The notes under the pieces were generated by a model that was given only the letters and a program-made list of their open reading frames with translations, made no database searches and had not been told where the DNA came from. 52,169 nucleotides of DNA from Candidatus Eiseniibacteriota bacterium (lineage in GTDB: Bacteria; Omnitrophota; Gorgyraeia; 2-02-FULL-51-18): the NCBI GenBank assembly GCA_035496715.1, contig DATJEK010000131.1, forward strand, positions 1 through 52,169, given 5' to 3'. The translations under genes and the position numbers were made by a program. How positions within the stretch are numbered: the stretch's first letter is position 1; each line of letters opens with the position of its first letter. Of the stretch, positions 11,101 to 29,600 are shown piece by piece.

Positions 11101-14100
11101 GAACTCGTACAGGTTGACCTCGCGGATGACCTGGCCGGTCCGGTGGTCGCGCAGAACGAGAATGTCGTTCAGCACCGACACGCCGCCGCCCGAAGACCCG
11201 AAACGGCGCTCCCTGAGATAGGCGTCGACCGTCCCGTTCGAAGCCTGGAAGGTCTCGCCGGGAAAGGCCGGTGTGGACGTGATCTCGTACGCGTGCACGG
11301 ATCGGCTCGCGACGTAAGGAAGCGCCTCCCCGCTGCCGGGGTTGGGCTGGACGAACGATTCGCGTCTGAGTTCGATCGAGAGATCGCCCACCTTCTGCGT
11401 CGTGATCGCCTCGACGGGGTTCTGCGCGGCGATCTCGTCGAAAGACTTGAGGCGGTTTTCCTGACCCGCGCCGACGGTCTGGTAGCGGCGCTCGGTCACG
11501 GTCTTGTCGGCGTCGTAGCGCGCCGTGAAGACGATGCGGCTCACCGCCCCTTCGGCCAGCTTGCGGCCGGTTTCGCGGTGATAGAAGGTCTCGCGGGCCG
11601 TGGCCTGCGTGACCAGCGGCCTTCCCTGGGCGTCGCGCCGGACCACCGTCGATTCGGTCACGGTGACCGCGTTCGAGGGCAGGAGTTCGCCCGGGATCGA
11701 GATCGTGCCGTCGCCGTTCAGGTCGCTCGGGTAGCCGACCGGAACCGTGCGCGTCTCGGTGGAACCGGTCAAGCGTCCCTGCGCATCGTACCGGTACGCC
11801 GTGACCGTGGTGACCGGGACCTCGGAACCCAAGAATCCGGTGCCCGTCACGCTGACGCTCTTTCGGAGGAGGCGGCCCTGGGCGTCGTATTCGTCGACGG
11901 TGACGGTGCGCTGCGTCGAGCGCACGGTCGAGCCCGCATACGCATTTTCGGAAACGATGCTCTGGACCTGGGTCACGGTGCGGCCGGAGCGCGTGACCGC
12001 GGTGACGTTCTCGTTCGGGGACGGCAGGCCCGTCTCGCGGATCTCCGTGAGGTTGCCCTGCGCGTCCTTTCGGGCGCTCGAGGTCCGGTACTGGGTCGTC
12101 AGGTCCGCGAGGACGGCATAGAGCTGACCCTGTTCGCGGTCGCCCGTCTGCGTGCGCAGCGCCTGCCGGATGTCGCCGGAAAGCACGCCGATCGCCGTGT
12201 CGTAGGCGGCCGTCCCGGGCTGATACGTCACACGCCGGGTTTCGCTGCCGCTTTCCTCCTGCGTGAAGAGGATCGTCCGGTTCGACGGCAGATAGACGTA
12301 GGTCTGCTTGAAGGGCACCGCGCCGCCCGAGCTCGACCGCCCCTTCGTGCGGATCACGATGATGCTGTCCGCGTCGAAAAGACCCCGCGTGATGCGGACG
12401 TTGAAGTCGCCGACGCGGACCGAGATGTCGGTGATCGCGGCGCGGTACGACTCGAGCTCGGCGATCACCGTCTGGATCTGGGCGGCGCGGGCTGCGTCGG
12501 GGACGGCGAGGAAATACGCGCGTCCCTGGCGGGCCTGAGCCAGAGCCTCGTCGAGCCTCGCGTCGTAGGCCGCCGTGCCGGGATTCAGGACCTCTTCATG
12601 GTCGGGGAAAAACTGGCCGTAGCGGTAGGTCAGGGCCTTCGTGGTCCGGTTGAACTCGTACTCGCGCTTCGCGCCCGAATCGCGCAGATAGAGGCGCGCG
12701 TCGCCCCGCTCGATCGCGAGCAGCCCCGACGTGTAGGAAGGGATCGGCGGAGCCGCGTTCAGCTCGTAGTTGATCAGGAAATTGCCCGAATCGCTGCGGA
12801 ACGATTCGACCTCGGCGATCAGCGAGTCGAGCTCGCGCACGCGCGCGGCGCCGGCGGCGCCCTGGGCGAGGAAATACTCGCGCTCGCGCCCGGCGATGAA
12901 TTCGATCTTGTCGATTTCGTTGTTGTACGCGGGCTCCCGCGTGTCGAACACGTGCGTCCCGCCGTAACCGGCCTGGAGGGTGATGACGTGCGTCGCGCGG
13001 TTGACGGTGAAAACCTCTCCGGACGACGGGCGGGCGCGGGAAACGACGAGATCGGCGCCCGTGCGGGCGGCCCGGTACGAAAACTCGTCCGCGAGGAAAA
13101 ATCCGGTGTCGAAATTGCCGACGACGGGATTCGAGACCTCGACCGCGTTGACGGTGACGTCGACCGGCACGTCGGTGCCCTTCTCGAACAGGGTTTCCGA
13201 GAGCGTGGCCTCCTGGCCGCCGATTTTTCGGCTGACCGTGACGCGGTCGGGAGGAGTGAGGAGGACCCGCGCGGGCGCCGGCAGCTGCGACTCCTGGCCC
13301 GAGGCAACGAGGCTCATCCACGTTTTCTCGGTCGTCTTGTCGTCCGCGTAGCCGAATTGCCGCACGGTCTGGAGCGTCGTGAAGTTTTCGATCACGCTTC
13401 CGGCGGGCGTTTCGGCGAAATAGCGCTGCGTCTCGACGATCTCGAGCGGACGGCCCTGCGCGTCCGAGCGGAGCACCCTTCCCTCCGTCTGCCGCACGAA
13501 AACCGCGGGGATCCCTTCGTTTCCTTCGATCACTCCGTTGTGGTTCAAATCGCGCGAGAGGACGCCTTCGATCGCGGAGCGCGAGGAGGTGCCGGTCAAT
13601 GCCCCTTGGGCGTTGTAGCGATAGGTCTTGGTTTCGTTCACCGTCGTCCCGAGATATCCCGTGCCTTCGGTGCGGATCGTCTCCGAGACGAGGCGGCCGT
13701 TCTGAAAGACCCGCCGCGCCGTGATCGTCTGAGTCGAGACGCCCGCGTAGGGCGAGGTCGTCTTGGTAAACTGCGTCCGGGTGACCACGCCCGGTTCGTA
13801 ACGGTAGGTCACTTTGAATTCGTTCCCGGTGTCCGGGAACGCGCGCGAGAGTTCGGACAGGCGGCCCTGGGAATCCAGCGTCGCGCGGTCGGTGTTCCGG
13901 GTCTCCGAGAGCGCGCGCGTGTAGACATATCCCACCGTGTAAGAGCCCGTCTGACGCCCGTGATCGAACGTCTTGACCGACACGATTTCGGGGCGCTGGG
14001 GCACGCCGTAGGCGTCGTTCTGCGACGCGTAGCGCGTCTCTTTGGAAAGCGAAGGCTGCGTCTCGCTCGGGGCCTGATGGAGCTCGGTCTTTTTCGAGAG

Positions 14101-17100
14101 ATCGTAGGCGAAGGCGCCCGTGGCGTATTCCAGGCGCTCCACGTCGACTTCCTTGAGCGTGCCGATCGGGGTCGGAAAGAGCGACGTGACGGCGCTCTGG
14201 GTGATCTGACCCTGGCCGTTCAGCGTATAAACGGCGTCGCGCGTGAAAGCGAGCGCGCCGTAATTATAGGACTGCGCGATCCTCGCCGTCTCGTCCACGT
14301 GATAACCCGCGGCCCGGCCCGAGGCGTCGAAAACGTAGGTTTTGACCGCGCGCGATTCGAGGACGCCCTGGCGGCTCTTCACCTCGGTCGTCTCGACGGC
14401 GACGGGAGGCGTCAGCGAGGGGCCGCGGCCCGAGCCGTACACCGGGCGATACGTGAAGCTCTGCGTCTTGATCGTGTCCGAGCTCGGGAAGCGGCCCGCG
14501 CCGAAGGTCTTGTCCTCGGTGACGACCCGGTCGATCTGCTGGCCGTACGGGGACGTGTAAAACGTGGTCTTGAACGAGGAGCTCTGCAGCTCTCCCCCGA
14601 CCGTCCGGGTCACCGACTCCGTCGGGTTGCCGGCCGCGTCGAAGCCGAACGTCGTGAGGACGGACACGGACGCGCCGTTTTCGCGGAAAGTCTCTTCGCG
14701 TGAAACCACGACCGGGGACTGGAAGAAATGCCCGTCGAGCGTGTTGGACTTGCGGATGACGACACGGTCTTCGGTATGGGTCTGCGTCTGAGGCGCGCTG
14801 AGCGCGGCCTGCAGGGTCGAATCGGAGCGAAGCGCGGCCGGTGCCGGCGAGGACGGCTCGACGTCGATCGGAGCCTGTTCCAGGTAACTCACGTGCACGA
14901 TGTCCGAAACCGGCGCCTGGACCGTGGCGGCGACGATGCGCTTCTCGAGCGTGTCGAAGCCGAGCGGCGTGAAATTATTCTTGGAGGACAGCCTGGCGCC
15001 CTGGGCACCGTCCGTTCCGCCCGGAGGAGGCTCCTGGGCGAGCGTCCGACGGGCGTCGAGAAGCGTCCGGGGCTCGCCTTGACGCAGGACCAGGCCGATC
15101 ACCAGGGACTCGAGGAGCGCCGCCGCCAGCGCGACGGCCGCGAAATAATCGCGGTCCGAACGCATCCACTCCGCCCGGCCCAGGACCTCGCCGTCCCGGG
15201 TTTCCGTCAGAGAGAGGCGCTCGTCGCGGACGTAGCGGACCGCCAGCTCCCGGTCGAAGCGCGTGATCAAAAGGTCGAGCGCGCCGGCGCGCAACGTCAG
15301 CCGTGCGACGAAGCTGTCGCCGCCGTAGAGCTCGACGCGGCGCTGTCCGTCCGAGGTCTCGAACGGGGCGGTTTCGGTGTCCTTGGGCCTGGCGAAACGG
15401 TCCGGGGTCCGAACCGGTCTTTCTTCCCGCGGAAGCGGGGTTCCCGTGCCGGCTTCGGCCGAAGGGGCGGCGGCGGGAGCGTTCACGATCGCCGGCGCCC
15501 CGTCCGGCACGCGGCCGAACGGAAATTCGGCCGCGGGATCGAAACGGCGGATCACGCGCTGCCAGTCGGCGAGAGGATCCTCCGCGCGCGGCGCGACGAT
15601 TTCGGGCTTTTGGGGCGCGGGCTCGTTCTGCCCGGTCACCGGCAGCGGAGACGACAGGAGAACGGCGGCGGTCAGCGCCTTGAGGGCGTTCCACCTGCGG
15701 GCCTGGAAAGAGGCCAGGCGGGCACCCTCGGCCGGCGGGACCGGCGGAACGCCGCCCTGACCCCCCTGGATCAGATCCCCGAGCTCGTTGGCGGGCCGGC
15801 GGTGATCCGTCTGGAGACGGGCCACCACCTCTTGAAGGATCGGCCGTTCCCGAAGCGGCAGGATGCCCTTTTTATCGGCCGCGCCGGCCGTGTCGCCCGC
15901 GGGCGGTTTCTGCCCGAGGAGGATTCTCTCGTAACGGGCACGGTTGGTTTCGTGCAGCACCTGCGGAGTGATGAGGACGTAGGAGATCCCGCTCTCCTTG
16001 AAAATCGACGTCAGGTTCGGGGAATGGTAGCCGCCGGCGACGAAGACGGCCTTCGTCTGGCGCTCGGCGTCCATCTTCGCCGAGATGTTCCGCGCGAACG
16101 CGCGGTCCCTGCGGTAGGTGAGCTCGTAAAAGCGCTCGGCCTGTTTCACGAACGCGTCGAACTCCGGGTCGAGGAACACGGCCTTCTCGTAGCGGCTCTT
16201 CAGGTCCATGATCTTGCGGTTCACGAAACCGGTGAGCGGCACGACGCCGAACTCGGCTGAATCGGCGCGCCAGGCGGCGAAATCCTCGGGCGTCATCGTC
16301 AGCTCCAGCAGGCTGCGCAGGCGCCGGACCGACCGGTCCGCGCGGCAAAGGTCGGCCTCGTCCGCGGTCACGGCGAGCGCGGCGTAAAGGCGCTCCTCCA
16401 GAGCCGACATCTCGCGCACGACGCTCTTCGGGTCGAGCTCCTCCCCCGCGCGGAGGTAGCGCAAAAATTTACCGAGCTCGGGATAGCCCTCGAGGCCGCC
16501 GGCTTTCTCTTCGAGGAGGGCGTAGAACGCTTTTTCCTCCTGACGGTCGCGGCTCGAAATGCGGAACGGCGACCGGGAACCCGCGGACGCCAGGAGAGAC
16601 TTGAGCTGGGCCTCGCCGAGACCGGCCAGGAGCTTCTCCTGCTCGAGGTTTGCGGCCTTGAAATCGATGCCGTCTTCGAGCGACTTGAGATTTTTCAATT
16701 GGCGCAGGTGCGGGTAGGCGGCCAGGCTGACGCCGTTTTCCGAGGCGGCGCCGGAGAGGATGCCGGCGTATTCGACGGACGAGAGCTCTTCGCGGGAGAA
16801 CGCGGCGCGGCGGGCGTCGAGCGTCAGGAGGGCGCGGTTCAGCACGCGCGGCTTGAGCGCCTCGACGGCGGCGGAGATCTCCTCGAGATAGGCCTCGAAA
16901 CGGGCGCGCCCCGAGGCGATCCCCCGGTACACGGCCAGCGATTCCCAGTACAGGTCCTTGTCCTCGACGCCCCAGAGACGGAAATCGTGGTCCGAAGTCA
17001 GGTCCAGGTATTCGCTGCCGCTGACCTGCCCCTGCTTGAGGTAGGACAACGCCACCTTCTCGCGCCGCGCGGGCGTGCCCAGGACGCGGGCGAACGTCAG

Positions 17101-17430
17101 CGAGTCGTCGCCGGTGCCGGCTTCGAGGAAGACGAATTTGATTTTTTCCTTCTTGAAAATGATGTCGAGCGCGGCGGCCGTGTTCAGCTGGCAGGAATCG
17201 TTGGTGTGTGCGTCGCGCACGAGATAGACGGTCTTGTCGTTGCGGGTCGGGCGATAGGAATCTTCGATGAGAGCGACCGAATGCGGAAAGCGGAAGGCCG
17301 TGGGAACGGAAGCGGAAAGCGCCAGGTCCGCGGGCGGCTGGATCGTGCCGGCCATCGCGGCCTCGTTCAGGAAAAATGCGTTCACCAGTAGGGCTGCGAC
17401 GACGCGCACGGCTTTGCGGGTTTTTCTCAT
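8146..17430 (-). CDS. giant protein 1 (~3,094 aa from ATG 17430; ORF opens at TTG 17478): signal peptide, conserved N-domain, TM hairpin, YD-repeat-like region, conserved C-domain
   Basis: A single frame carries [27 protein letters not shown], paralogy with giant protein 2 at both termini, multiple YxYDxxGRL-like repeats and 3 GARL[A/S] motifs. AAGGA lies 10 nt upstream of ATG 17430. Confidence 0.85.
8149..9216 (-). other. giant 1 module 4 (aa 2755-3110): conserved C-terminal domain
   Basis: It begins right at GARLA 2755 and is collinear with giant 2 aa 10365-10712. Confidence 0.7.
9920..9967 (-). repeat. short tandem duplication (24-nt period) encoding TEKPQTP/AEKPQTP in a P/K/T-rich linker
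   Basis: On the plus strand, ggcgtctgcggtttctc (from 9920) recurs as ggcgtctgaggtttctc (from 9944), 16 of 17 identical. It sits inside the linker [30 protein letters not shown]. Confidence 0.6.
12079..13020 (-). repeat. about 2.5 tandem protein repeats of ~120-130 aa in giant 1 (aa ~1487-1800)
   Basis: The units share F.(V/F)NR.T..(I/L)T, P(G)(T)AAY(D/N), YFLA and (L/V)IAE(V/L)ES(F/Y)R, for example [35 protein letters not shown] against [36 protein letters not shown]. Confidence 0.55.
15001..15726 (-). other. giant 1 module 2 (aa 585-826): two-TM hairpin module
   Basis: [19 protein letters not shown] (aa ~595-613) and [21 protein letters not shown] (aa ~778-798). It has the same layout as giant 2 module 19 and is bounded by GARLA 585 and GARLS 827. 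Confidence 0.6.
15727..17430 (-). other. giant 1 module 1 (aa ~17-584): signal peptide plus conserved N-domain
   Basis: [34 protein letters not shown] and [12 protein letters not shown] are collinear with giant 2 module 1. The module ends at GARLA aa 585, against 581 in giant 2. Confidence 0.65.
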
Positions 17431-17478
17431 GGCCTGGTGATCCTTTGTCAAAAGCGGTTTTTCGTCAGCTTTTGGCAA

Positions 17479-17686
17479 CCCGGCCCGTCTCGAAAGACCC
17501 CGTCGGCTTTGCGCACACCTTGCGGCGTTTGCCCTTTACAAAAGCAAAACTTTCAATAACCAATTTTAAAAGAGCTTAAGTGATTGAAGTTTACGTGACA
17601 AGCGAACTTCTTTCAAGATCTTTATTAAGTTTTTTGGTTGAAATTATTGTTAAATCTTGGAAAGAAATGATTTCTTTTAAAAAGAA
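17479..17686 (-). promoter_or_regulatory. AT-rich intergenic island between the two giant genes; candidate sigma70-like promoter at 17588-17616
   Basis: There is a sharp drop in GC relative to the flanking sequence. The minus strand reads TTGAAA-N17-TAAACT (-35 at 17611-17616, -10 at 17588-17593), about 160 nt upstream of ATG 17430. Confidence 0.3.
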
Positions 17687-20600
17687 CTACGCAGACATGC
17701 CAACGGCGCGAAGCGCCAGGCGGGCACCCTGGAGCAGGACGCTGACGGGGATTTTTTTGGCCACGGGCAGAAGGAAGCGGAAACGGCTGTACTCGTCGCG
17801 GCGCGCCGCGCCGCTGAAAAGACGCACGAGCGTCGCCGCGTCGGGCAGGCGGTTCTCGGCATTTTCATTGTAGTACGCATAGATCTTGGGATCGACGCCT
17901 TCGAAGCGGATCTTACCGGTCCCCTCGTCGATGCGGTAGAAAGCCGCGGCCGCGCTGCCGAGACGGAACGCCTTGTTCCAGGCCAGCAGCGAATCCCCTT
18001 CCGAAGTCAGACCGCCGACGGGCACGTACACCGTGCGGCCGTTGTCGGCGCCCTCGGGGCGGCCGGCTTCGGCGTCGAAGAGATCCACGAGCGTGCCTTC
18101 GAAGTCCGCCGGGACCGAGGCCGTGAACGCTTTCTCCGAAAGCACCGACGCCTTGAGCTTCTCGAGGAGCTCGGACTGCCAGCCGGTCAATGAAGCGCCT
18201 CCGGTCAGCGCGAAACGCACGGACACGCCTTCCTTGCGGAAGAAATTATGGTGCGCGGCGGCCTGCGCGGCCATGAGGCGGAACTGCGCCTCGAACTTCT
18301 GCGGATCGCCGACGCGCGCGAAATAGTCGAGCGGCACGCGGAAGAGAACGGGAGCGCCCGCCTCCTTCTCGACGGCCGGCAGCGCGATCGAGGCGTTGAG
18401 GTCGCTCGTCTGCAGGAGGCCGTGCACGAACTGAGCGGTGACGGTTTCCGCATCGCCCTCGGAGCGGGCCCGGTCACGCAGGCGGGCATACGCGCCCTGC
18501 GGGTCGGGAATCGATAGGAGCGTTTCCTCGGCGCCGCCGGGGGCGACGTATTTGAGGCGCAGCTCGGCGCCGCCGGTCCCGCGGCCTTCTTCCAGGCGAA
18601 GCACGCGCGCGAAGCGCTCCTCGAGCTCCATCGCGAACGGCAGGCCGCGCTTTTCTTTCTGGGCCGCCCACAGCTCGAGCGCGAAGACGCCCAGCGCCTC
18701 GGTCTGGGCGGGCTCGAGCGCCAGCCGCGCGCCCTCGCCGTCCTTGCGGGACGCCTGTCGCTCGCGGCGCTGCCGCTGGATGCGCGCCTTGACCGGGGAT
18801 TCGACGTACTCCCGGTAGTCGGCGGAACGCTCGATCAGCCCGCGGGCCATGTTGACGGCGCTCAGATCCGTCCGGTCGATCTTCGGGTTCCTGAAAAGAC
18901 GCGCCAGGCGCGGGCCGTCGGTGAGGCGGCTCAGGAATTTGCCGATCGGGATCTTGTTGGGCGACATGCTCGCGTAGACCGGCACCGAATACTTGCGCCG
19001 GAGATAGTCGGTGAAGAGAATGAACTTTTCGCTGCCGGCGATCTCGCCGCAGAACCCGACGTCTTTCGCGGGCCGGTCGCGGTGCGCGGCGTTGTGGCGC
19101 GCGACCGAACCGACGATCGCGTCGATCGCGCGGAGGACCTGGGGATGGAGCTTCGCGAAGAGGTCGCCCAGCTCCGGGAGGTCCCGGCTGATGGCCACCT
19201 TCGCCCCGCCCTTCTGGGCGACGGCCTGCGTGAACACGTCGGAGATGACCTCGGCCGTCAGGTCGTTGGTCCCCACGCTCACGAAACCGGAGAGCGGGTG
19301 CTCGAGCAGTGCGTCCAGGTTCCGGTACGCGTCCACGGTCTCGACCATGATGCCGAAGAGCACGCTCTTGCGGACGGCGAGGAGCTTGTCTCCGCCCGTG
19401 ACCCCGACCGCGGCGTCGATCGCCTCCGGCAGGATCTCTTTTTCGAGATAATCCAGATCTTCCGTTCGGCGGACCATCGGGACCATGATCCGCAGTTCCG
19501 GCCGGCGGTCCGCCGGCAGGGCCGCCTGGGCCGAGTACAGTGCCGCGACCTGCCGGATCAGCAGCTCGCGCCCCAGCGGCGTCCGGTAGAAGTCGAAACC
19601 GGTGACGGGGCTCGTGTCGCCGCTGCGTTCCTGGAGCTTTCTGGCGGCGCCGAGGATGTTCTGGTTCTTGTCTTCCTGCAGGTCCATCAGGCGGAACGTC
19701 ACTTTCTTCCCGGCCAGATAGTCCCTCGAAAGGATCGCGCGGTACTGGTCCATGAGCTCGGCCAGGAATTCGTCCAGACGGCGCTCGCGTTCCGCGGGCT
19801 CGTCCCCGTTCAGCGCGTGGCGGATCAGGGTGTCGATCAGGATTTCCATCTGCGGACCCCAGATCTCCGTCCGCACGAGGCCGATGCCGTCGGCGAAGTT
19901 CTCCTCGAGACCCTCGGCGTGGTCGGCGGTGATGTTCGCGCGCAGCGGGAACGGCGTCGTCCGCGAAGCGAACCGCCGGGCCATCTCGTTCGTCTTCTCC
20001 TGGCGGTATTTCCGGATCTCGAGCTCCTCGACCCGCTCGGCGGAAGGCTCGATGAAGGCCTGGCTCTCGCCCTTGCTCTTCTTCGTGCTCAGGATCACCG
20101 TGTCGCCGACTTTCAGCGTGTCCAGGAGGCGTTTCTGGGCGGGGTCCGTCAGAAGGACCACCGCGGGCGGATTGATGAAGCTCTGCGAGACGATGACCCA
20201 GTGGCTCGAGAGCGTGGCGCTCGTCGTGATGATGCCCTTGATGCGCGTGCCGTAACGGGTCCAGATCCGGTTGATGCTGGTGACGTCCATGTTGTCACGC
20301 ACGACGAGCACCACCGGCTCGTGGTCCGCCCCGAAGCGCAGTTGATGCGTCTCGGCCTCGCGTTCGGCCGAGGACACCTGCGCCGCGATCACCTGGCGGA
20401 AGAGATCGACGACGTCGTTCAGCGTCCCCCGCAGATGCCCGACGGCCTTGCGGCGCAGCGTATAGTAGCGCTTGATCAGCATGTCCTCGTAGATCAGGCT
20501 GGCGAGATTGCGGTTTTCGCGGAGCATGCGGGCGCGCAGTTCGAGGCGCTTCTGCGGCGTCCCGACGTACTGGACGCGGAAACCCTCGAGCAGGCTGATG

Positions 20601-23600
20601 AAATTCTCCGTCACGATCGCGGACGTGGAATATTTTTTGGAGCCCGTCTGGAGGTCCGCGAGGATCCGCAGGTTGTGGCCGAGCTGGCTGCGCAGCTCAC
20701 CGGAGGCGGGATCCTGCTCCCCGACGGCGGCGATCTGCTGGTTCAACACTTCGTTGTAGGCTTCGAGGGCCCCCTGCACCGCCGACGCGCTCTGGTCCAT
20801 GTGCCGGGAGGTCCTCAGGATCTGCTCGAACTCGCGGACGAGCCGCTCGATGATGACGTCGAAGCGGTCCAGCTCGGCGGCCGCCAGCTGCTCGGCCTCG
20901 CGCACTTCGTCCGGCTTCCGGTCGGACGGATTCGCGTAGTCGTACAGCCGGGCGAGGACGAGCGATTCGGCCCTCAGGAAATCCAGGATCTTGTACAGCA
21001 TCGCCTTGTCGAGCGTGCCAACGCCCATCGAGGTGCGCTCGATCTCGTCCATGATCCGGCGCATGAGAAGCGAAGCCGGGTTGGTCTTCAGGTCGGACTC
21101 GCTGATGACCGCCGCCTCGCGGTTGACGAAGGCGAGCGCGAGCTCCTGCTCCCGGTCGCCCAGCGCCGTCCGGATCGACTCGCGGAGATTGTCCATGAGG
21201 AGGCCGAACGCGGCGATTTCGCGCTCTCTCTGCTCCGGCCGCACGGGATAAAGGATCTCCTCGGCGCTGCGCGGGCTGAAAAACGCCACCTGTCCGCTGA
21301 CGGTCTTTTCCGGAGTCGTGCCGTCGCCCTGGACGAGACGCTCTTCGGCGAGGCGGGCCCCCGCGGTCGCGCGGAGTTCCGCCTTGGCGCCGTTGCTCAG
21401 CAAGTCGACCCGGTCGATGAAACGGCTCGTGGCTTCGTGGAGGCGCACGAGCGTCGGGTTGCCTCCCTGGAACCGCGCGTACTCCCGGCCGGAAGAAGCG
21501 AAAACCCAGGCGGCGCGGTTCAGATAGCCGCGGGCGAGATCGAATTCCTCCGCGGAGCGCTCGAGCCGCGAGCGGTCTCCGGAGCGCTTCCAATCCGCAT
21601 AAGCCGAACGGGCGAGCCTCCAGTGAAAAAGTCCCAGACCGCGCTCGGCGAAACCGGCGTCGGCGAGCGTCCGCCCTTTCCTGCGCGCCGGCGCCTCTTC
21701 GAGGGCCTTCGCGTACGCGGCGAGGGCCCTTTCGTAGGCGACGGGAGTCTGGCTGTCCCGGTCGGCGCTGCGGAGATTGCCCTGGCGCAGCAGCGCGTGA
21801 CCCGACAGGATCGCGGCGGCCGACAGGCGGGAACGCAGACGCTCGACGACGGAGGGCCGGACGCGGACGGCCAGACGGAGGGCCTCTTCGTACCGCCTCA
21901 CCGCCCTTTCGGCGAGGATGCGCTGCGATTCGGTCGCGCTCAGCGTCGCTTTCTCTCCGGAAAGCCGGCGGGCGCGCGCGGACAAGCGCTCGGCGCGCTC
22001 GACGGTGGCAAACAGGAGCGCCAGCTCCTTCGACAACCGCGCCCCGCGCCGGTCGGCGGCGCGCATGAACAGGATCCTTTTTTTCTCCTTGATGGCGGCC
22101 GAATATTCCTCGATCCTCTGCTGGAGTTTCGTCCGGATTCCGCGCGCGACGCCGGGCATCCGTCCGATCTCGTCCAGCAGGCCCACTTCGAAGCCCAGGT
22201 ACTCGGGCAGGCTGTTCGAGCGCTCCTCGGCCGCGAACCGGTCGACCCTCGCGCGATATTCCTGGTACAGGCCTTCGGCCGTGAGCCCGGCGGCCGCCGC
22301 CGGGACGCTTTCCTGTTTCTTCTTCAGGAGCAGCCGGACCTCGTTCGCCAAGCCCAGCCGCCGCGCCTCGTCGAGGAGCTCGCCCGACTGGGTCCGGATC
22401 GCCTCCGCGTCCTTCAGGTCCGCGACCCGCGCCAAAAGCGCCCGGCGGCCGGACCAGACGGCTTCGAGCTCCCGGCGGCGTTCGTCGACGACCGTTTGGA
22501 TCCTGGGCTTCACCCCGTGTTCCTCGGCGCTCCGCAAAAGGAGACCGGCGCGAAGATCGAACGTGGTCGCGTCGTCGGCCTTGATCTGCCGGGCCGCGCG
22601 CTCGAGTTTCGTGCCCTCGTCGGTCCGCTGCTCGTACTCGCGGGTCACCTGGCGGCGGCGCTCGTCGACGGCGCGCGCGAGACCGCGGCGGACGTCTTCC
22701 GAAGGAACCGAAGCGAGGAAACCCTCGAGAGCCTTTTCGAACGCCTGAGGAGACTCCGAGTCGAGCCGCTGGATCTCGGGCGAGCGCCTGCGGATCTCGG
22801 CCTCCACGAACCTGCCGCGGCGCTCGGCGACGTAGGGCGCGAGCGCCTCGCGGACGGCGTCCGAGCGGCCGGAGAGCGCGTCGGCCAGGCCCGAATCGAA
22901 GCTTTCGAGAGTCGCCGCGTTCAGCGCGTCGATCCGGAGCTCCAGAAGCGACGCCTCCCGCTCGATCGCCTTCGCGTCGACGACCGGGACTTCCTGCGCC
23001 GGCGGGATCGCGGTGGTGGGCGTCACGGCGGACACGGCGGGAACCGGTTTCACCGTCGTCACGACGGGTTCCGCGGCGGCCGGCTGGGTCACGACCGGTT
23101 GAACGGCGACGGCATCCGCGGCGGAGGGTTTCGTGACGGCCGGCTGAATGACGGCGGGTTTTGTGACGGCGACGGATTCAGCGGCGGAAGGCCGGGCGGC
23201 GGTCACCGGTTTCGCGGCGGACGAAGGCGCGGCGCGTTTCACGGGCGCGGCGGCGGGCGCGAGATAGGCGGCTTCCAGAGCGGCATGCTCCTGCCTCTCC
23301 GCGGTCGTGATCGGCTTCTCGCTGAGATACGACGCGAGCGTGAAACCGTTTCTCTTTTTCCAATTGCTCCACGCCGGAGCCTTGATCGCCAGACGGCGCA
23401 CGAGATAGCTGTCATTCAACGCCGCCCCTTCGGGCGCGGCGGCCAGGATGCGCCGCACGCCGGCGAGGCGGTTGTCGGGGCTGTGGCTGGACACCTGGCG
23501 ATACAGCGGCAGGACCCGCTCCTCATCTTTGTGCTGGTTGAGCCACGACCAGAGCGTGTTGCCGGCCACCGCCTCGATGCCGCGGGCGGTCATGAGCTCG

Positions 23601-26600
23601 GCCAGTTCGTTCACGGTGAATTCGCGGTATGGATTGCCTTCCAGGATCGCGGCCAGACCCGCGTTCACCGAGGTCACGCGAGCGGCGAAGAGGTCGGCCG
23701 ACGTTTTCCTGAACGAGACCCCCTCGGCCTCGAGCGTCGCTCGGCCCAGAAGGTCCCCGAGGTCGTAGATCTGCGTGGAGCTGAGCGTGGAATTGGCGAC
23801 GAGGTTGGCGACCGTCGCCTCGGTCGATTTTTCCTTCAGATCCGCGATCGCACGGCGCAACTCGGCCCAGTTGGCCTTGCTGCGCGGCCCCAGCTCCGCC
23901 AGCCTCGCGCCGTAAACCGCGTCGAGCGACTGCCAGAGGACGGCCGTCCTGTTGCCGAGGAGGGCGGACAAAAACGGTCCGCTCGTGTCGATCGAGAGGA
24001 CGACGGCCGCGTGCGGCAGCCGGTTCACGGTTTCCCCGGTTTCCGCGTCGACGATCTTCACGGTCCAGCTTTCGTCGCTGACGGCGAAATAACGCCCGCC
24101 CTCGAGAAAGCGCACGGTATGCGTCACGCCGGCCCGGACGGGTTCGCGATACGCGAGACGGCCCTGCGGATCCACGGGAAGGCCGTCTTCCAGGTCGAAC
24201 AGCGTCACCCCGGCGGGCGAGGCGGCCGCGAGCCGTCGTCCGTCGGGCGAGAGCGCCACGCTGTCGTGGTTCGGGACCGTCACCGAGCCGGCGAGCCGGC
24301 GCAGGAGGGCGTCGTAAATGTGGATCTTTCCGTCGATCGTCGCGAAATAAACGGTCGTCCCCCCGGGCAGGACGTGCGCGCTGCGGATCGCGGATCCCAG
24401 ATCCAATTCTTCGCGGACGAACGGCAGGTGCGCGCGAATCTCCCAGGGGACGACCCTGCCGTCGGCTCCGGCCGTGAAAACCCTCCCCGCCCGCGGAACG
24501 ACCGCGGCGTCGGTGACGGCCCTCAGGTGACGAAAATATTCCGCGGGACCCGGGCGCTGAGACGGCGTTTCCGCGCCTTCAATTTTCCAGAAGAGGACTT
24601 CCCCTTGGGCGTGCATCGAAATCAGCGTCGAGTCGTCCAGGAACGCGAGTTTCGAAATGCCGGATTGGCCCGGGATCGACGCGATCAGCGCCCCGCTGGC
24701 GGCGTTCCAGATCAGGATCCCGGAGTAATCCCGCGAATTCGCGGTCGCGACCAGGCGCCCGGACGGCGAGAAGACGGCGGCCGATATGGCGCTTCCCTGG
24801 TCGAGCCTGCTCTGCAATTCTCCCGTCTGGGCGTCCCAGATGAGCGCCGTGTTGTCCGCGGAGCCGGTCAGGAACCACCGGCCGTCCGGCGACACCGCCG
24901 TCGTCACGAGACTGTCCTGATGACCCGCCGCGATCACCTTCTGTCCGAAAAACGACCGGAGCTCCCGCGCGGTGCGCGCCTCGTCCAGGCGCCTCATCTG
25001 GGAGACGACCCAGGCGACGTCGCGGGCGTTGACCTGCTCGTCCAAAGCCACGAGCAGCGCGTGGAAGAGGCGGAAGAGGGATTCCCGGTCATGGACGGAT
25101 GACGCGGCCTCCACCCGGGCCTCGATGTCCCGTTTGACGGCGTCTTTTTCCTCCCAGCCGTTGGGGCGGGCGCGATGGATGTCGTAGAGCAGGCCCAGGC
25201 CCAGCGATTCGTAAATCTGCTGGCGCTCGATCTCGAGCGCGGGCTCGTGCGCGGCGACGGCCGGAGCCGGAGACTGGCGGCGGTCCTTCATCGATTCGAC
25301 CACGAGCTTAAGGAACGCGGCCTTGCCCCGCGCGTCTCCCGGATAGAGGGCGTCCGCGGAACGGCGCAGCGCGTACAATTCGTCCTCTCCGTAGGCCGGC
25401 GCCTGGCCCGGCGACGCGGGCCGCCGGTATTCGGGAAAAGCCAGGAGTCCCGCCGCCAGCGGATTGAAGAGCGGGGATCGCTCCGCCTGGTGGACGACGT
25501 TCATCGCGACGCCCGCGATCATCTGGAACTTCTGGAACGAGCGCGGATCGGTGACCCTCGCCGAGAAGATGTTGAACGCGACGGTCCCCTTGGGAGAAAG
25601 ATACCAGGGTGTCCCGTTCTTGCGCATGACCGTGTCCCCGGCCAGCGCCGTGTCGTACATCGTGCTGCGCGAGAGGTTGCCGATCGGCGCCAGGCGCGAC
25701 CAGTAGTCTTCCATGAACTTGAAGATGAAAACCAGGCGCTTGTCGAAGCCCGTGCTCGGCTTCGTGTGGCCGACGTGGATGTGGATGGACGAGCGCAGCT
25801 GCGTGTCGCCGCGCTGACGCGTGCGCTGCCATTCCTCCAGGGCGTGCTGGATGCGCAGGAGGCCCTCGTTCAGCTGGTGGAAGCTCTTCTCGTCGTTGCT
25901 CAGGATGTCCGTGTTGAATTCGATCGACTTGTCCTCGAGGTTGAACGCGGAGCTGTCGATCTTCATGAGCCAGCCCCAGCGCCCCGGCTGCTCGGTGAAC
26001 AGGCCGTCGGGGAACCGGAGATCGTCGAGAAGGGTCGAGCGCAGGAACGTGTAAAACCGCCCGGTCTCGAAATTGTCGTACGCGCCGCTCGGGTCGGTGA
26101 CCGCGATCTCGATCTCGAACCCGAACGTCATGTCCGCGGGAAGCCCCTTCACCCCCGAGAGCGAGTAGAAAAAGTTCGTGTCGATCTTCGAGAGGAGTTC
26201 GAGGTAGGCCGCGTAGGCGCCGCTCGAGAGGGCCGCGAGGCTCGCGGCCGGGCCGTCGACGAGACGTTCCAGGAATTCACGCGGCTGGGCCGACAGGTCG
26301 AGCGAGGCGGCCGCCCGCAGGTAGAGCTCGAGGGTGTGCGGGTTGAGCGCGGACAGCTGCCGGGAGACCGCGACGATGAGCTCGCCGGCCGGCTTGATCC
26401 TCGGCGCGTCGCCGTAGTCGTGGATCGCCTTCACGAGCGCGTTCGTCCGGACCGGCACGTCGAGTGCCCCGGGGATGCGGCGCAGGATGTCGTAGATCTT
26501 GGCGCGGAGCTCCGGCGACAGCGGGCGTTGGAGCGCCAGCGACTTCTGCAGGAGGAAAACCAGCGGCGCGGCGTCGAGCGGTTCGGGCAGGAGCCCGTAA

Positions 26601-29600
26601 AAGAGCTCGAGGTCCGTAAAAATCCTCATCGCGCCGGATTCGTCCCGCTCCATCGAGCGGAAAAAGTCCTGCCAGGCCTCGACGTCCGATTCGCCCAGCC
26701 GGTTCACGCGGCGGACCTTCGCGCCGAGCTCCGCCTCCAGCTGCTGCAGCCCCTCGGAAGTCGGGACCACGAGGCTGTCCTCGGGAGCCCACAGCGAACG
26801 GCCGTCCGGCGAAGGATCGGTGGGCTGGATGCCGAGATCGCGGCGCGCGAGCAGGAACCGCTCCGCCTGGCGGACCACCGGTGAAGTCTCCGAAGCGGCC
26901 GGGTCCGCCTGAATGCGCTTCAACTCGTCGTACAACGTCCGCGCGCGCGAACGCAGCGCGGACGATTGCGCGTCGCGTCCCAGGCGAAGATCGACCATCG
27001 CCAGCTGGGCCAGCAGGCCCTGCACCGCTCCGGCGGGGCGGGTCAGGCGGAAAGAGCCCGGCAGGAGGATTTCGGTGCCGTCTTTCTTTTCCTCCTCGGC
27101 GAGCCTGGCGCCCAGGGCGCCGGGATCGATCCGGTCCAGGATCGGATACTCGAGGCCCGCTCGGACGATGAATTCCTCGACGGGCTCGTAGTCGACGTTG
27201 CTCAGGTGGGTGCCGAAGTAATCGATCTGATCGGGCGAAACGCGCACCTTGTAGATCGACCCGGCGTGTCCGGAGTAGGTGGCCGATTCCCGCGGATCCG
27301 CGGACAGGTAGAGCGGATCCGCCGGCCGCATCGCCTCTCCCGGGAAGAAGCCCTGCCGCCGAGACCCGTGATAGAGGACGAACGATTCGGTGTAGGGATA
27401 ACGGCGCATCAGGTGCCACAGCGAGGCGCGTTCCGCCTTTTCGGCGTGCGACCGCAGGACGGCGGCCAGTTCGCGCCGGTCGCCCCGCCGGAACGCGATG
27501 AGCTCGCGCGCGAAACCCAGAAGCCCTTCCGCGCCCACGGTTTCCGCGAGGCTCGAGAGGGTGAACGCGACTTTCTCCTCCTCCGTCAGGCCGTTTCCTT
27601 CGGTCCAATACCCTTCCACGTTGAAGACCGAATACACACCGGCGGTTTCGGCCGCGGAATAACGCGCCAGAACGGCGGAATAGCCTCCCGCCCGCTCGAA
27701 TCCTTCCAGGATGCCGTCGACCCGCCGGCGGCCCTCTTCGGATTCCGTCACGGCCAGGAGCTTCAGGACGGCTTTCACGGCGGTCGGATCGAGGACGAAC
27801 CGGGTCAGCGCGGTTCCTTCGGGAAGCGTGAGCTTGTCGTCGAATTTGTCGATGAGCTCGTCGGTCAATTCGGCCGCGATCGCCGACCGGAGCTTCCTGA
27901 CGAAGAGGACGATCCTGCGGGGAGTCGCGGTATGCCGCGGGTCGAACTCCTCGTCGAGCGATTTCATCTTCCTCTCCCACTCCAGACGCGCGGGCGCATC
28001 CGACGCGGGAATCAAGCGGCGCTCGACGGCCAGCCGCGCGCCCCGCTCCCCCTCGTCTCCCTCGCCGCGTCCCTGGTGGAGGTCCTTCAGGATGTCTTCC
28101 CTGGAACGCGTGCGCGGCAATTCCTTGCTGCCGCGGATCGACGGGACTTCCGTCCGGCGCACCATGAGCACCAGAAGCGGGATGAGCCCCACCGCGCCGG
28201 TCACGAGCCGTCGGAAAAAGTCGCGCATCATGGAGTCGAACTCGCGCTTCTCGCGCAGCTCCTGGCGGCCTCCGAACACCATCGCCGCGGCGTCCTGGGC
28301 GCCGCGTTCGACCGCCTCCGGCGAATCGGTCCGGAACCGCACGGGCGCGAAGGGCGGAGCGGCCATGTGCTTGTCTTTTTCCACGACCTCGAGCACGGCT
28401 TCGTTCGGGCGGTCGCCGCGGGAGATCCGGATGGCCTCGATCTGGTCGCGGCGCGCGCGGTCGGCCGTCATTCTCGAGAGCGCGTCTCCGAGCTCCCGCT
28501 GAATCGGCTCGGTCTGGGCGATCCCTCGGCCGGTCTCGTCGCGCACCTCGACCGCGAGCTCGGAAAGCGCGACGCGCCGCTCCGGCATGATCCAGCGGGA
28601 CGTGAGCCCGGGCCAGTACAGGAGTGAGGCGAGGAGCAGGCCGTACGCCACCGTGCCGAGCGGCCGGTAATTGGCGAGGAGAAAATCCCGGACGGACCGC
28701 AGAAGGCGCATGATTTTTTTGCCCAGGCGCGCTCCCCGCACATCCCGCACGTCCGGAGGGGCGATGAGATACCGGTCCCATTCCCGGATGAGCCCATCCC
28801 AAACCCGGTAGCGGTTCGTCAGTTCGTCCAGCATCCGCTCGCCTTCCTCGGTCACCGCGCCGCGCCGCGCCATCGCGTCGATCGTCGCGAGCAGGCGCCT
28901 GACGTGCCGGATGTTCCGGCCGGCCGCCGCGTGCGCGACCGCCGCCGGGATCAGGTCGTCGCGGAGATAATAGGTCGCGGTCAGGTCGTCGCGGAACGAC
29001 GCTTCGGCGAGAAACGCGCTGGCTTCCACGAAATAGCGGTAGAGCTGTTCGGGAACGCTCACGACGTCCAGCTGCAGGCTCCGGGGAACCTTGACGGGCT
29101 CCTCGTCTCCGAGGAGCGCCCGTTCCGGATGCTCCTGATGGAACTCGTGATGGTCGTTTTCGTGAATCACCGTGGAGGCCAGTTCGGCGTCGGACTGCGT
29201 GATCGGCGAGGCCAGGCGCGTCATGAACGGGTAATCCCGGTGGGCGCTTCCGGCCGCCCCGTGTTCCAGCTCGGACAGCACGATCAGATGGGTGTTCCGC
29301 AGGAGGCTCTGGTAACGCGAGCGCTCGTCGGTCCCCAGAAGCCGGACGATGTCGAACGCGCGGCCGAGGGCCGTCAGGGCTTCACGATCCACCCGCGGCT
29401 CGAAATTGCCGCCGACTACCGGGATCCGCGTGCCGGGCACGAGCCGGGCCTTCTTGAAAATCTCGACGCCCTGGTCGATCTTGCGGGAGATCCGTTCGAG
29501 CTCCGCGTTGATCGTGGCCGCCGGGAGATTCAGTTGTTTGAGCTGCATCACGCGCATCAGCGACGCCGCCAGCCACGGCCAGCGGTTCTCGACGAACTCG

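Follow-up and report, generated by a model that had tools for sequence, protein, structure and literature searches.

The window considered here, the whole stretch of DNA that was analyzed, comprises 52,169 nucleotides of contig DATJEK010000131.1 from Candidatus Eiseniibacteriota bacterium, an organism placed within the Omnitrophota, and it harbors two adjacent genes for giant proteins. All credible genes of the window, which has a G+C content of about 67%, are found on the minus strand, as are all of the features described below. Giant 1 (8146..17478) is an open reading frame (ORF) of 3,110 amino acids, with a likely methionine start at 17430, and is divided into four modules by three copies of the short motif GARL, here referred to as junctions. 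Giant 2 (17687..49825) is an ORF of 10,712 amino acids, in which 25 GARL junctions give 25 modules of 111-1,067 amino acids and a C-terminal stub of nine residues. The two proteins are 43% identical over their first ~530 residues and 35% identical over their last ~345 residues, and they differ in the middle. From these and related sequences we suggest, with a confidence that stops a little short of even, that the giants are polyproteins, which would be cut at GAR[L/M]|[A/S] in the cytoplasm of the producer so that each module could then follow its own targeting signal.

The genome to which the window belongs (2.18 Mb in 196 contigs, 78.7% complete) encodes at least 14 copies of the conserved N-terminal head domain that both giants share. 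It contains 16 giant ORFs or fragments, after one other-frame false positive on contig C131 was dropped, and these add up to approximately 85,000 amino acids (~255 kb), or around 12% of the assembly. If the polyprotein interpretation is true, precursor chains that mix cytoplasmic, membrane, and exported proteins would account for at least a tenth of the genome in a free-living bacterial lineage, a form of gene organization otherwise known from viruses and a few toxins.

A first interpretation made from the letters alone, referred to as the sequence-only reading, had drawn attention to Sec-like N-termini and to one internal two-helix module in each giant, and had seen in this combination a topology puzzle, as enzymes that depend on cytoplasmic substrates would seem to be carried out of the producer. 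The puzzle is real, and it has also been stated for other giant proteins of the Omnitrophota. In West-Roberts et al. 2023 (bioRxiv 10.1101/2023.11.21.568195), predictors place glycolytic domains "outside", a placement that the authors doubt, and in a 2026 preprint (10.64898/2026.06.07.730766), where DeepTMHMM was applied to 916 uncut giants, a metabolic interpretation of one of these proteins is given up on the same grounds. Whether such proteins act whole or in pieces is a question in the text of both preprints. If they are cut, topology predictions made on uncut chains would mislead, and the modules would be best analyzed one by one.

The junction motif

The tetrapeptide GARL is found 28 times in the two giants, against 1.24 occurrences expected from composition, and each of the other 23 permutations of its letters occurs between zero and four times. 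The residue that follows is alanine in 20 cases, serine in seven, and glycine in one, and the flanks beyond these five positions display no conservation. Since synonymous codons at the sites follow background use, with the leucine specified by CTG (17), CTC (10), or TTG (1), the constraint acts on the protein. The possibility of an internal translation start at each junction, with GGAG as ribosome-binding site and the L/M codon as start, was considered and rejected, as 10 of the 28 leucine codons are CTC and the glycine is mostly GGC, as in the background.

The motif extends well beyond the window. In 28 family sequences (26 homologues together with the two window giants), GARLA is the most common 5-mer, with 106 copies against 0.56 expected, and GARMA, AARLA, GARLS, and GSRLA are found as variants. 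At least three junctions of the GAR type are present in 99 of 120 proteins of at least 1,500 amino acids whose heads are close to those of the window giants. The first junction of giant 1 (GARLA, 15712..15726) falls within a low-confidence linker of the structural model of its head (predicted local distance difference test, pLDDT, <50; model residues 544-580).

The junctions are also located where proteins naturally begin, as is seen in the PEPCK module of a paralogous giant on contig C1, whose alignment with the genome's stand-alone PEPCK starts at module residue 5 and covers residues 5-586 of 617 at 43% identity. Pfam matches likewise fill their modules, with AceK covering residues 11-571 of 583 and PEPCK residues 14-586 of 617. 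What is new here is the strict junction motif at the level of the protein, the location of junctions at natural enzyme N-termini, and the twin-arginine translocation (Tat) signals that directly follow some junctions. Taken together, these make the junctions candidate cut sites that are directly testable.

The contents of the modules

Searches with Pfam and NCBIfam name acyltransferase, Fic, 2-hydroxyacid dehydrogenase, protein kinase, and WD40 modules in the window, along with a module resembling glucosamine-6-phosphate deaminase and a phosphoenolpyruvate (PEP)-utilizing domain that resembles Enzyme I or PPDK. The kinase, Fic, dehydrogenase, and Enzyme I-like modules of the sequence-only reading are thus borne out. 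About 20 of the 29 window modules carry no annotation. Neither RTX repeats nor C80, C39, or S8 peptidase domains were detected among the 29 (Pfam, E<=0.01); a very divergent protease may hide among the unannotated modules.

A domain scan of 151 modules cut from the other giants of the genome reveals whole metabolic enzymes. The C1 giant (6,543 amino acids, C1:2362-21990, locus L013) contains PEPCK, AceK, malate synthase, isocitrate lyase, a HAD hydrolase, and HPr joined to a class I aldolase as separate modules, and its metabolic domains are full-length and fill their own modules. A stand-alone PEPCK gene is located directly upstream. The class I aldolase of this genome is found only in the giant. 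Domains resembling HPr (PTS-HPr) occur in three modules of three giants (L005, L011, and L013), two as stand-alone modules of ~100-120 amino acids and one as an N-terminal fusion to the class I aldolase. One of these three giants, on contig C95, also carries a SecA-like module, whereas the window giants are devoid of a SecA domain.

Membrane proteins are also encoded within the chains. Spans were sought with the usual criterion of a 19-residue Kyte-Doolittle mean of about 1.6 or more; with a cut-off of 1.5, modules with four to six hydrophobic segments are found in paralogues of the same genome. In one of these, a GT2 glycosyltransferase module, the catalytic domain comes after two segments, and four more start close to its end or beyond it. 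As a GT2 domain must be cytoplasmic, both ends of this module would be placed in the cytoplasm. At the other extreme, the C1 giant has no transmembrane candidate that reaches 1.5 anywhere, and its own signal-like start is also under the cut-off; similarly, homologue P0003, which carries PGK, has no transmembrane candidate at 1.6.

Targeting signals that follow the junctions

If modules were released at the junctions, some might be expected to begin with signals of their own, and such signals are observed. A strict Tat pattern (RR-x-[FL]-[LIVF] followed by an uncharged core) was sought in 42 sequences with a total of 176,580 amino acids. A junction precedes five of the seven recovered sites by 2-9 residues (p=4e-6) and a sixth by 25 residues, and the remaining site is elsewhere; the 20 residues that follow junctions make up 4.6% of the sequence. 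The clearest case is module 10 of the C1 giant, between malate synthase and AceK, which begins GARL|ASRREFLRGAGAAAAGLLVSPLATLEAAAP, such that a twin-arginine signal starts two residues past the junction. This leader, SRREFLRGAG..., follows the Tat consensus and is a textbook twin-arginine signal. With lenient rules, Sec-like cores follow 17 of 235 junctions in the homologue set against a background of 3.1% (2.3-fold, p=0.001), and Tat-like sites follow six of 235 against 0.3% (8.4-fold, p=1e-4). TatC and signal peptidase I are both encoded in the genome. A Tat signal placed after a junction would be meaningful only if it came to stand at a free N-terminus, and did so in a cytoplasm.

Hydrophobic segments are distributed more irregularly. 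At a cut-off of 1.6, the numbers of internal modules with zero, one, two, three, and five segments are 210, 21, nine, two, and one, respectively, among 243, and some of the single-segment calls are probably buried helices. Because odd counts are common, hairpins are not a rule of the family. Lysine and arginine are more abundant on the junction side in 15 of 21 informative first helices (22 examined, one tie; p=0.08, with the motif arginine counted in some) and in nine of 10 informative last helices (12 examined, two ties; p=0.02).

The N-terminal signals and the conserved head

Both giants begin with what looks like a cleavable Sec signal, for which the criterion is a basic n-region, an uncharged core of ~7-15 residues, and small residues at positions -3 and -1. 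In giant 1 (17350..17430), the basic stretch RKTRK is followed by an uncharged hydrophobic core (best 15-residue hydrophobicity 2.20) and then by A-M-A before the proposed cut; in the AlphaFold2 model this region is an isolated helix (residues 2-29). In giant 2, the N-terminal extension and signal-like sequence (49697..49825, ...RKWLRLLSAALIVTFLAQEVAFA), which has homologous counterparts at the start of P0010 and P0011, contains RRTDRK, the core LLSAALIVTFLA, and A-F-A. Judged by hand rules, both starts have a basic n-region that is followed by 12-15 uncharged core residues and by A-x-A, and the alanine at -1 (A27) is invariant in all 34 aligned family heads. The two starts quoted in the sequence-only reading are therefore present as described. 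The uncleaved anchor that it had offered as an alternative is unlikely, because the hydrophobic core has just 12-15 residues. A conserved acidic residue (F-L-x-Q/N-D/E) within the segment is unusual for a plain signal peptide.

The head that follows resembles the TIKI, erythromycin esterase, and ChaN proteins. In giant 1 it occupies 15796..17313, and in giant 2 it extends up to the first junction (48071..49696, with GARLA at 48071-48085) and is 43% identical to that of giant 1. The AlphaFold2 model of the giant 1 head (pLDDT 83.9; predicted template modeling score 0.76) consists of the isolated N-terminal helix, an alpha/beta core, a large helical insert of ~300 residues (model residues 158-455), and the linker that contains the first junction. 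Alignment of the model with VIA-align recovers HopBA1 (Z 9.3, 167 residues aligned, root-mean-square deviation 3.6), ChaN (8.7), 2qgm (8.5), EreC (8.4), and RRSP (6.7), exactly the proteins that have been placed together in the TIKI superfamily (PMC6254334). Four of the seven top matches are members of the TIKI family, with 163-182 residues aligned; a Z of around 8 differs little from the background that is usually seen. With Foldseek, the head matched no PDB structure at E<=0.001, and the Pfam family PF04187 scored 17.8 bits, below its gathering cut-off of 27.7 (E=0.0035). As modeled, the head has a TIKI/Ere/ChaN-like fold with an alpha/beta core, at scores near background.

All 34 aligned heads have the residues D73, A74, H75, E103, E156, and H469 in common. 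The 28-residue spacing between H75 and E103 is the same as that of the catalytic pairs H85/E113 of Bcr135 and H3902/E3930 of the endopeptidase RRSP (PMC6254334). On account of the TIKI-type fold and this invariant His/Glu set, the head is a probable hydrolase, and some members of the superfamily are endopeptidases. Another member, Tiki1, cuts Wnt3a at Leu|Ala. A complex prediction of the head with a 40-residue junction peptide scored 0.01 against a mark of 0.32, in a run that had no controls.

The hairpin modules

One module in each giant contains two hydrophobic segments between junctions. The sequence-only reading had placed these modules at 15726 to 15001, counted from the G of GARL, and at 28735 to 28043, and the boundaries are exact. 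In giant 1, module 2 is bounded upstream by junction 1 and downstream by junction 2 (GARLS, 14986..15000). Its first segment (15631..15687) is weak, with a 19-residue mean of 1.27 and an 11-residue mean of 2.00, and its second (15085..15141) is a strong transmembrane candidate, with a mean of 2.42 and four arginines in the next 15 residues. In giant 2, module 19 lies between GARLG (28721..28735), the sole junction with glycine in the next position, and GARLA (28028..28042). Its first segment (28604..28660) is preceded by a basic stretch (GKKIMRLLRSVR...), has means of 1.40 over 19 residues and 2.21 over 11, and scored as signal-like after the junction; the second (28160..28216) has a mean of 1.83 and a basic tail, with four K/R against two acidic residues in the next 15.

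Two segments per module, as originally described, are therefore present, although one of each pair is below 1.6 (1.27 in giant 1 and 1.40 in giant 2), with 11-residue cores of 2.0-2.9. The first segment of giant 1, which follows ...FQARR, resembles a signal h-region more than a membrane span. The loops are 163 and 129 residues long, and the description of them as mostly charged is overstated, because they are about one-third charged (33% in giant 1 and 37% in giant 2) compared to 24-28% for the whole proteins. The earlier statement that no other convincing transmembrane segment exists had missed a 19-mer in module 2 of giant 2 (FTAAMGVLLVLDAVAFPGI, residues 686-704, 47714..47770), with a mean of 1.93. 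This is probably a buried helix, since it has an Asp in the middle and a strand-helix context, and its candidacy as a stop-transfer helix is doubtful for the same reasons.

The number of hydrophobic windows is not above chance, because composition shuffles give more of them than the real giants (for giant 2 at 1.6, three observed against a shuffle mean of 11.6). The non-random part is the arrangement, in which two segments with basic flanks share one module of 231-242 amino acids that is enclosed by junctions. Whether the two hairpin modules are homologous to one another was examined, with a negative result (BLASTP E=1.9). No relatives other than the modules themselves were found among 50 homologues and the giants of the same genome, a protein-atlas search with either module gave no usable match, and a search with module 19 of a set of 5.8 billion proteins, confined to lengths of 127-405 amino acids, gave none at E<=0.001.

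The outer flanks of the window hairpins have a net charge of +2, compared with 0, 0, +1, and -1 on the four loop-side flanks, which represents a modest bias. Because the outer flanks carry more K/R, the distribution favors both ends in the cytoplasm and the loop outside, the opposite of what had been deduced in the sequence-only reading. That reading had everything except the hairpin loop on the trans side of the membrane, with the hairpin as the anchor. The hairpin flanks, the C1 giant, the GT2 module, and the Tat signals after junctions all speak against it.

Proposed processing in the cytoplasm of the producer and the alternatives

An export signal at the start of the protein cannot be reconciled with an uncut chain when enzymes that depend on the cytoplasm, modules with Tat signals, and polytopic modules all follow. 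The simplest account would be cutting at the junctions in the producer cytoplasm, which we put forward tentatively, as an account whose chances approach one in two. According to this scheme, the chain would be cut at G-A-R-[L/M]|[A/S] while still in the cytoplasm, and the released modules would then go where their own sequences send them. Most, including the kinase, Fic, dehydrogenase, and PEP-utilizing modules, have no signal and would stay in the cytoplasm; a minority with Sec-like or Tat-like signals or transmembrane helices would be directed to the periplasm or the membrane. The N-terminal Sec-type signal would serve the first module only, the TIKI-like head. The hairpin modules would be small two-helix membrane proteins, each with a basic N-flank, a helix, a loop of 129-163 amino acids outside, a second helix, and a basic C-flank. 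The head is an obvious candidate for the junction protease; a separate cytoplasmic protease is equally possible, as the head looks exported.

Several observations weigh against this account. The head is the sole universally conserved enzyme-like domain, yet it follows an export-type signal, which is an ill fit with cutting in the cytoplasm; several of its relatives (ChaN, Tiki, and PrgY) are extracytoplasmic. A free cytoplasmic protease with GARL specificity might be expected to select against the motif elsewhere, and such avoidance is not seen in the non-giant ORFs of the genome, where GARLA occurs four times against a permutation median of eight (a tie that spans ranks 4-8 of 60) and GARLS six times against a median of three. 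The lenient enrichment of signals after junctions is not reproduced in this genome alone, in which Sec-like cores follow seven of 168 junctions against 4.2% (p=0.56) and Tat-like sites one of 168 (p=0.49). In module 2 of giant 1, the first helix falls short of a canonical Tat signal, for which the consensus is S/T-R-R-x-F-L-K and then a mildly hydrophobic core; it has the RR without the x-F-L register and was not recovered by the strict scan. The embedded PEPCK, isocitrate lyase, malate synthase, and PEP-utilizing copies are divergent paralogues of stand-alone genes in the same genome, and they need not serve the metabolism of the producer. Finally, signal and transmembrane calls are based throughout on Kyte-Doolittle windows and hand rules.

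Among the alternatives, an uncut giant that is tethered to the membrane would have its signal and head outside, with a single transmembrane helix, or an odd number of them, returning the chain to the inside; the junctions would then be linkers or docking sites, and later hairpins would only tack the cytoplasmic body to the membrane. Giant 1 fits such an arrangement if its strong second helix alone spans, with the head and loop outside and the four arginines and the remaining 2,280 amino acids inside, and in P0010, P0013, P0019, and P0027 a hydrophobic segment is similarly present in the module right after the head. The 2026 preprint reads most giants as membrane-anchored with cytoplasmic domains (10.64898/2026.06.07.730766). 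Such a tether nonetheless fails for the C1 giant and for P0003, which combine a signal-like start and cytoplasmic enzymes with no later transmembrane candidate, and giant 2 would need the doubtful residues 686-704 to span the membrane. It also gives the internal Tat signals no role and leaves a strict five-residue motif at natural N-termini unexplained, and we regard it as unlikely.

It is more improbable still that the whole chain, led by its N-terminal signal and by some further machinery, leaves the producer in the manner of a MARTX toxin, to be cut in a host or prey cell where the ATP-, NAD-, and PEP-dependent modules would act as effectors in the foreign cytoplasm, which is the solution that the sequence-only reading preferred. 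The Sec-type signal-like start in all aligned heads, the conserved ends around a variable middle, and the weak matches of cargo modules to Fic/XopAC-like and LegK1-like proteins all accord with this, as does the centering of the family on the Omnitrophota (seven of 11 named loci), a phylum that has been described as predatory or parasitic. The junctions, with a Leu or Met and then a small residue, recall the MARTX protease, which cuts after Leu and before a small residue. The reading is also kept alive by the embedded metabolic enzymes, since these are extra and more divergent copies of stand-alone genes. Sec export would, however, lodge internal polytopic modules (those with four to six segments, including GT2) in the producer membrane, and the Tat signals after junctions need a cytoplasm with Tat, which the producer, with its TatC, has. 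There are no RTX repeats and no C80 protease domain among the 29 window modules by Pfam and no secretion-system genes in the window, and the flanks of the hairpins carry a cis-side charge bias.

Comparably improbable is the proposal that the N-terminal stretch is not an export signal at all but a pro-sequence or a membrane-association helix, the head being a cytoplasmic leader protease that would cut junctions in cis and in trans. Such a role would suit the His/Glu set of the TIKI family with its 28-residue H75-E103 spacing, the presence of one head, always N-terminal, in each member listed, and the acidic residue within the N-terminal segment. It would also suit the change of junction dialect from one head clade to another. 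Giants whose heads are distant (~24% identity) have a different recurrent motif, RSE[L/V/M]R; P0040 has 18 copies, the first just after the head, and the same type occurs in P0044, P0049, P0052, and others, with no protein carrying both types. Proteins with close heads (n=120) comprise 99 of the GAR type, none of the RSE type, and 21 with neither, whereas those with distant heads (n=23) comprise none, eight, and 15, respectively. This association is, however, confounded by shared ancestry, and within the genome of the window, heads that are 26-33% identical to that of giant 1 all go with the GARLA dialect, which hints at one genome-wide recognizing factor rather than each head. The n-region, core, and invariant A-x-A furthermore look like a textbook cleavable signal.

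Least probable, and quite unlikely, is a role of the giants as delivery vehicles that would be moved into a prey or host cell, cut there, and sorted piece by piece by the Sec, Tat, and membrane insertion machinery of the victim, with the isocitrate lyase, malate synthase, AceK, PEPCK, and aldolase of the C1 giant forming a program to turn acetyl units into sugar phosphates and with new membrane and periplasmic proteins installed too, a picture that fits the divergent enzyme copies, the effector-like character of the Fic and kinase modules, and the signal-like N-terminus but needs a translocation route and the exit of hydrophobic modules from the producer.

The family and its conserved tail

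Both giants are members of a large and mostly Omnitrophota family that is built to one plan, with a signal-like start, a conserved head, variable modules, and a conserved tail. A search with the head matches giants of 1,800-5,300 amino acids, and the few that are named belong to Omnitrophica or Elusimicrobia. In a library of 1.84 billion proteins, the head is found in 7,146 cluster representatives at E<=0.001; at E<=1e-10 the number is 5,221, which gives the scale of the family. The head occurs exactly once, at the N-terminus, in every match listed. The 11 named genome loci consist of seven metagenome-assembled genomes of Omnitrophota and four labeled Planctomycetia.

The tail module of giant 1 (8149..9204) ends in ...LRAVGVAA and is 35% identical to that of giant 2 (17690..18721), which ends in ...GARLALRAVGMSA. 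Among the giants of this genome, conservation of the tail is confined to the last ~35 residues, a helix that ends in ...xAA. The complete giants all finish in this conserved helix and ...xAA, which in the window corresponds to 17690-17740 and 8149-8200. The tail of giant 2 has a final GARL nine residues before the C-terminus, and a degenerate [G/A]-A-R-[M/L] is found 5-9 residues before the C-terminus in several relatives. A model of the tail (pLDDT 77, from a rough alignment of 13 sequences) displays a generic alpha/beta structure with a best Z of 7.2, to a macrodomain, and structural comparison of this model gave no clear relative and no protease fold.

Comparison with known systems

The nearest known proteins are the Omnitrophota giants of the 2023 and 2026 preprints, which share with the present family their phylum-level setting and their very long ORFs, in which a signal peptide, transmembrane helices, or both are encoded. 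They are also alike in having central-metabolism domains that are predicted "outside" and SecA-like modules, as in the C95 paralogue. The present family is set apart from them by its TIKI-like head, its conserved tail, and its five-residue junction motif. It spans 2,000-14,000 amino acids, with 3,110 and 10,712 in the window, whereas the "Archaeovorin"-type giants of West-Roberts et al. 2023 exceed 30,000 amino acids, have many transmembrane regions as well as a SecA DEAD domain, and are encoded downstream of a type II secretion-like locus. Cleavage of Omnitrophota giants is proposed in that preprint, by C39 or S8 peptidase domains, with the cleavage points stated to be unknown. The window giants, by comparison, have neither a C39 nor an S8 peptidase by Pfam, and there are no type II secretion neighbors in the window. 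Each has two internal hydrophobic segments in a single module, and giant 2 has one further doubtful segment, as against numerous transmembrane regions. In the texts of the two preprints, supplements apart, the terms "motif", "cleav", and "polyprotein" are absent from that of 2026, and in that of 2023 "polyprotein" is absent and "motif" occurs once. The literature search found no paper that joins Omnitrophota with polyprotein, and the motif as a word (GARLA/GARLS/GARMA) gives only unrelated papers among the matches listed.

MARTX toxins follow a plan of conserved arms and a variable modular middle that is cut between modules (PMC6315884). The giants resemble them in being one polypeptide with fairly conserved ends and a variable middle from which modules might be cut free, and RRSP, which has a TIKI fold, occurs in MARTX. 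There it is a cargo module, however, whereas in the giants the TIKI-like domain is the conserved head. MARTX toxins have glycine-rich RTX-type repeats in the arms at both ends and an internal C80 cysteine protease domain that cuts between the effector modules, whereas Pfam detected no repeat family in the head or tail modules of the giants and no C80 domain. The giants also differ in starting with an N-terminal Sec-like signal rather than having the C-terminal type I secretion signal of MARTX, and in a cargo that extends to polytopic membrane proteins, Tat-signal proteins, and entire metabolic pathways.

With the TIKI superfamily itself the head shares the alpha/beta core, the invariant His, Glu, and His, and the His-Glu spacing of Bcr135 and RRSP; it differs in its large helical insert and in being fused to unrelated modules that run to thousands of residues. 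Viral polyproteins that have a leader protease are also alike in several respects, including one ORF for many mature proteins, a short recurring junction motif, an N-terminal enzyme-like domain, and a mixture of membrane and soluble products. Unlike these, the giants are encoded by a cellular genome, which has at least 14 paralogous copies of them, their cargo is that of cellular metabolism and signaling, and their cleavage is predicted.

Neighboring genes and further features of the window

The gene order in the window is QueC, PanE, giant 2, giant 1, IlvD, an M15 D-Ala-D-Ala dipeptidase, a Cu-oxidase_4 protein, SulP, and a thioredoxin-like protein. QueC, PanE, IlvD, the M15 dipeptidase, SulP, and the thioredoxin are neighbors of both giants, and the flanking genes of the window are housekeeping genes. 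Long plus-strand ORFs overlap the giants, and the eight plus-strand ORFs that were scanned with Pfam gave no match; we take the overlapping ORFs to be artefacts of composition.

A number of individual modules have features of their own. The Fic module (39329-40252) has the XopAC/AvrAC effector family as its best NCBIfam match, far below the cut-off, and the kinase module (34394-35539) has a weak match to LegK1, among others, that is also far below family cut-offs. Module 3 of giant 1 (9205-14988, 1,928 amino acids) gives weak matches to the YD-repeat family TIGR01643 (E=1.6e-4) and to bacterial Ig domains, and contains repeated stretches of the type ...YRYDAQGRL... and ...RRDAQGRPL..., such that it may represent an Rhs/YD-like repeat region. 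Lastly, giant 2 contains an internal duplication, in which its residues 3508-3713 match module 2 (module residues 165-361) with 34.6% identity over 208 positions; the duplicated modules, 2 and 9, are located at 46904-48073 and 38654-39328.

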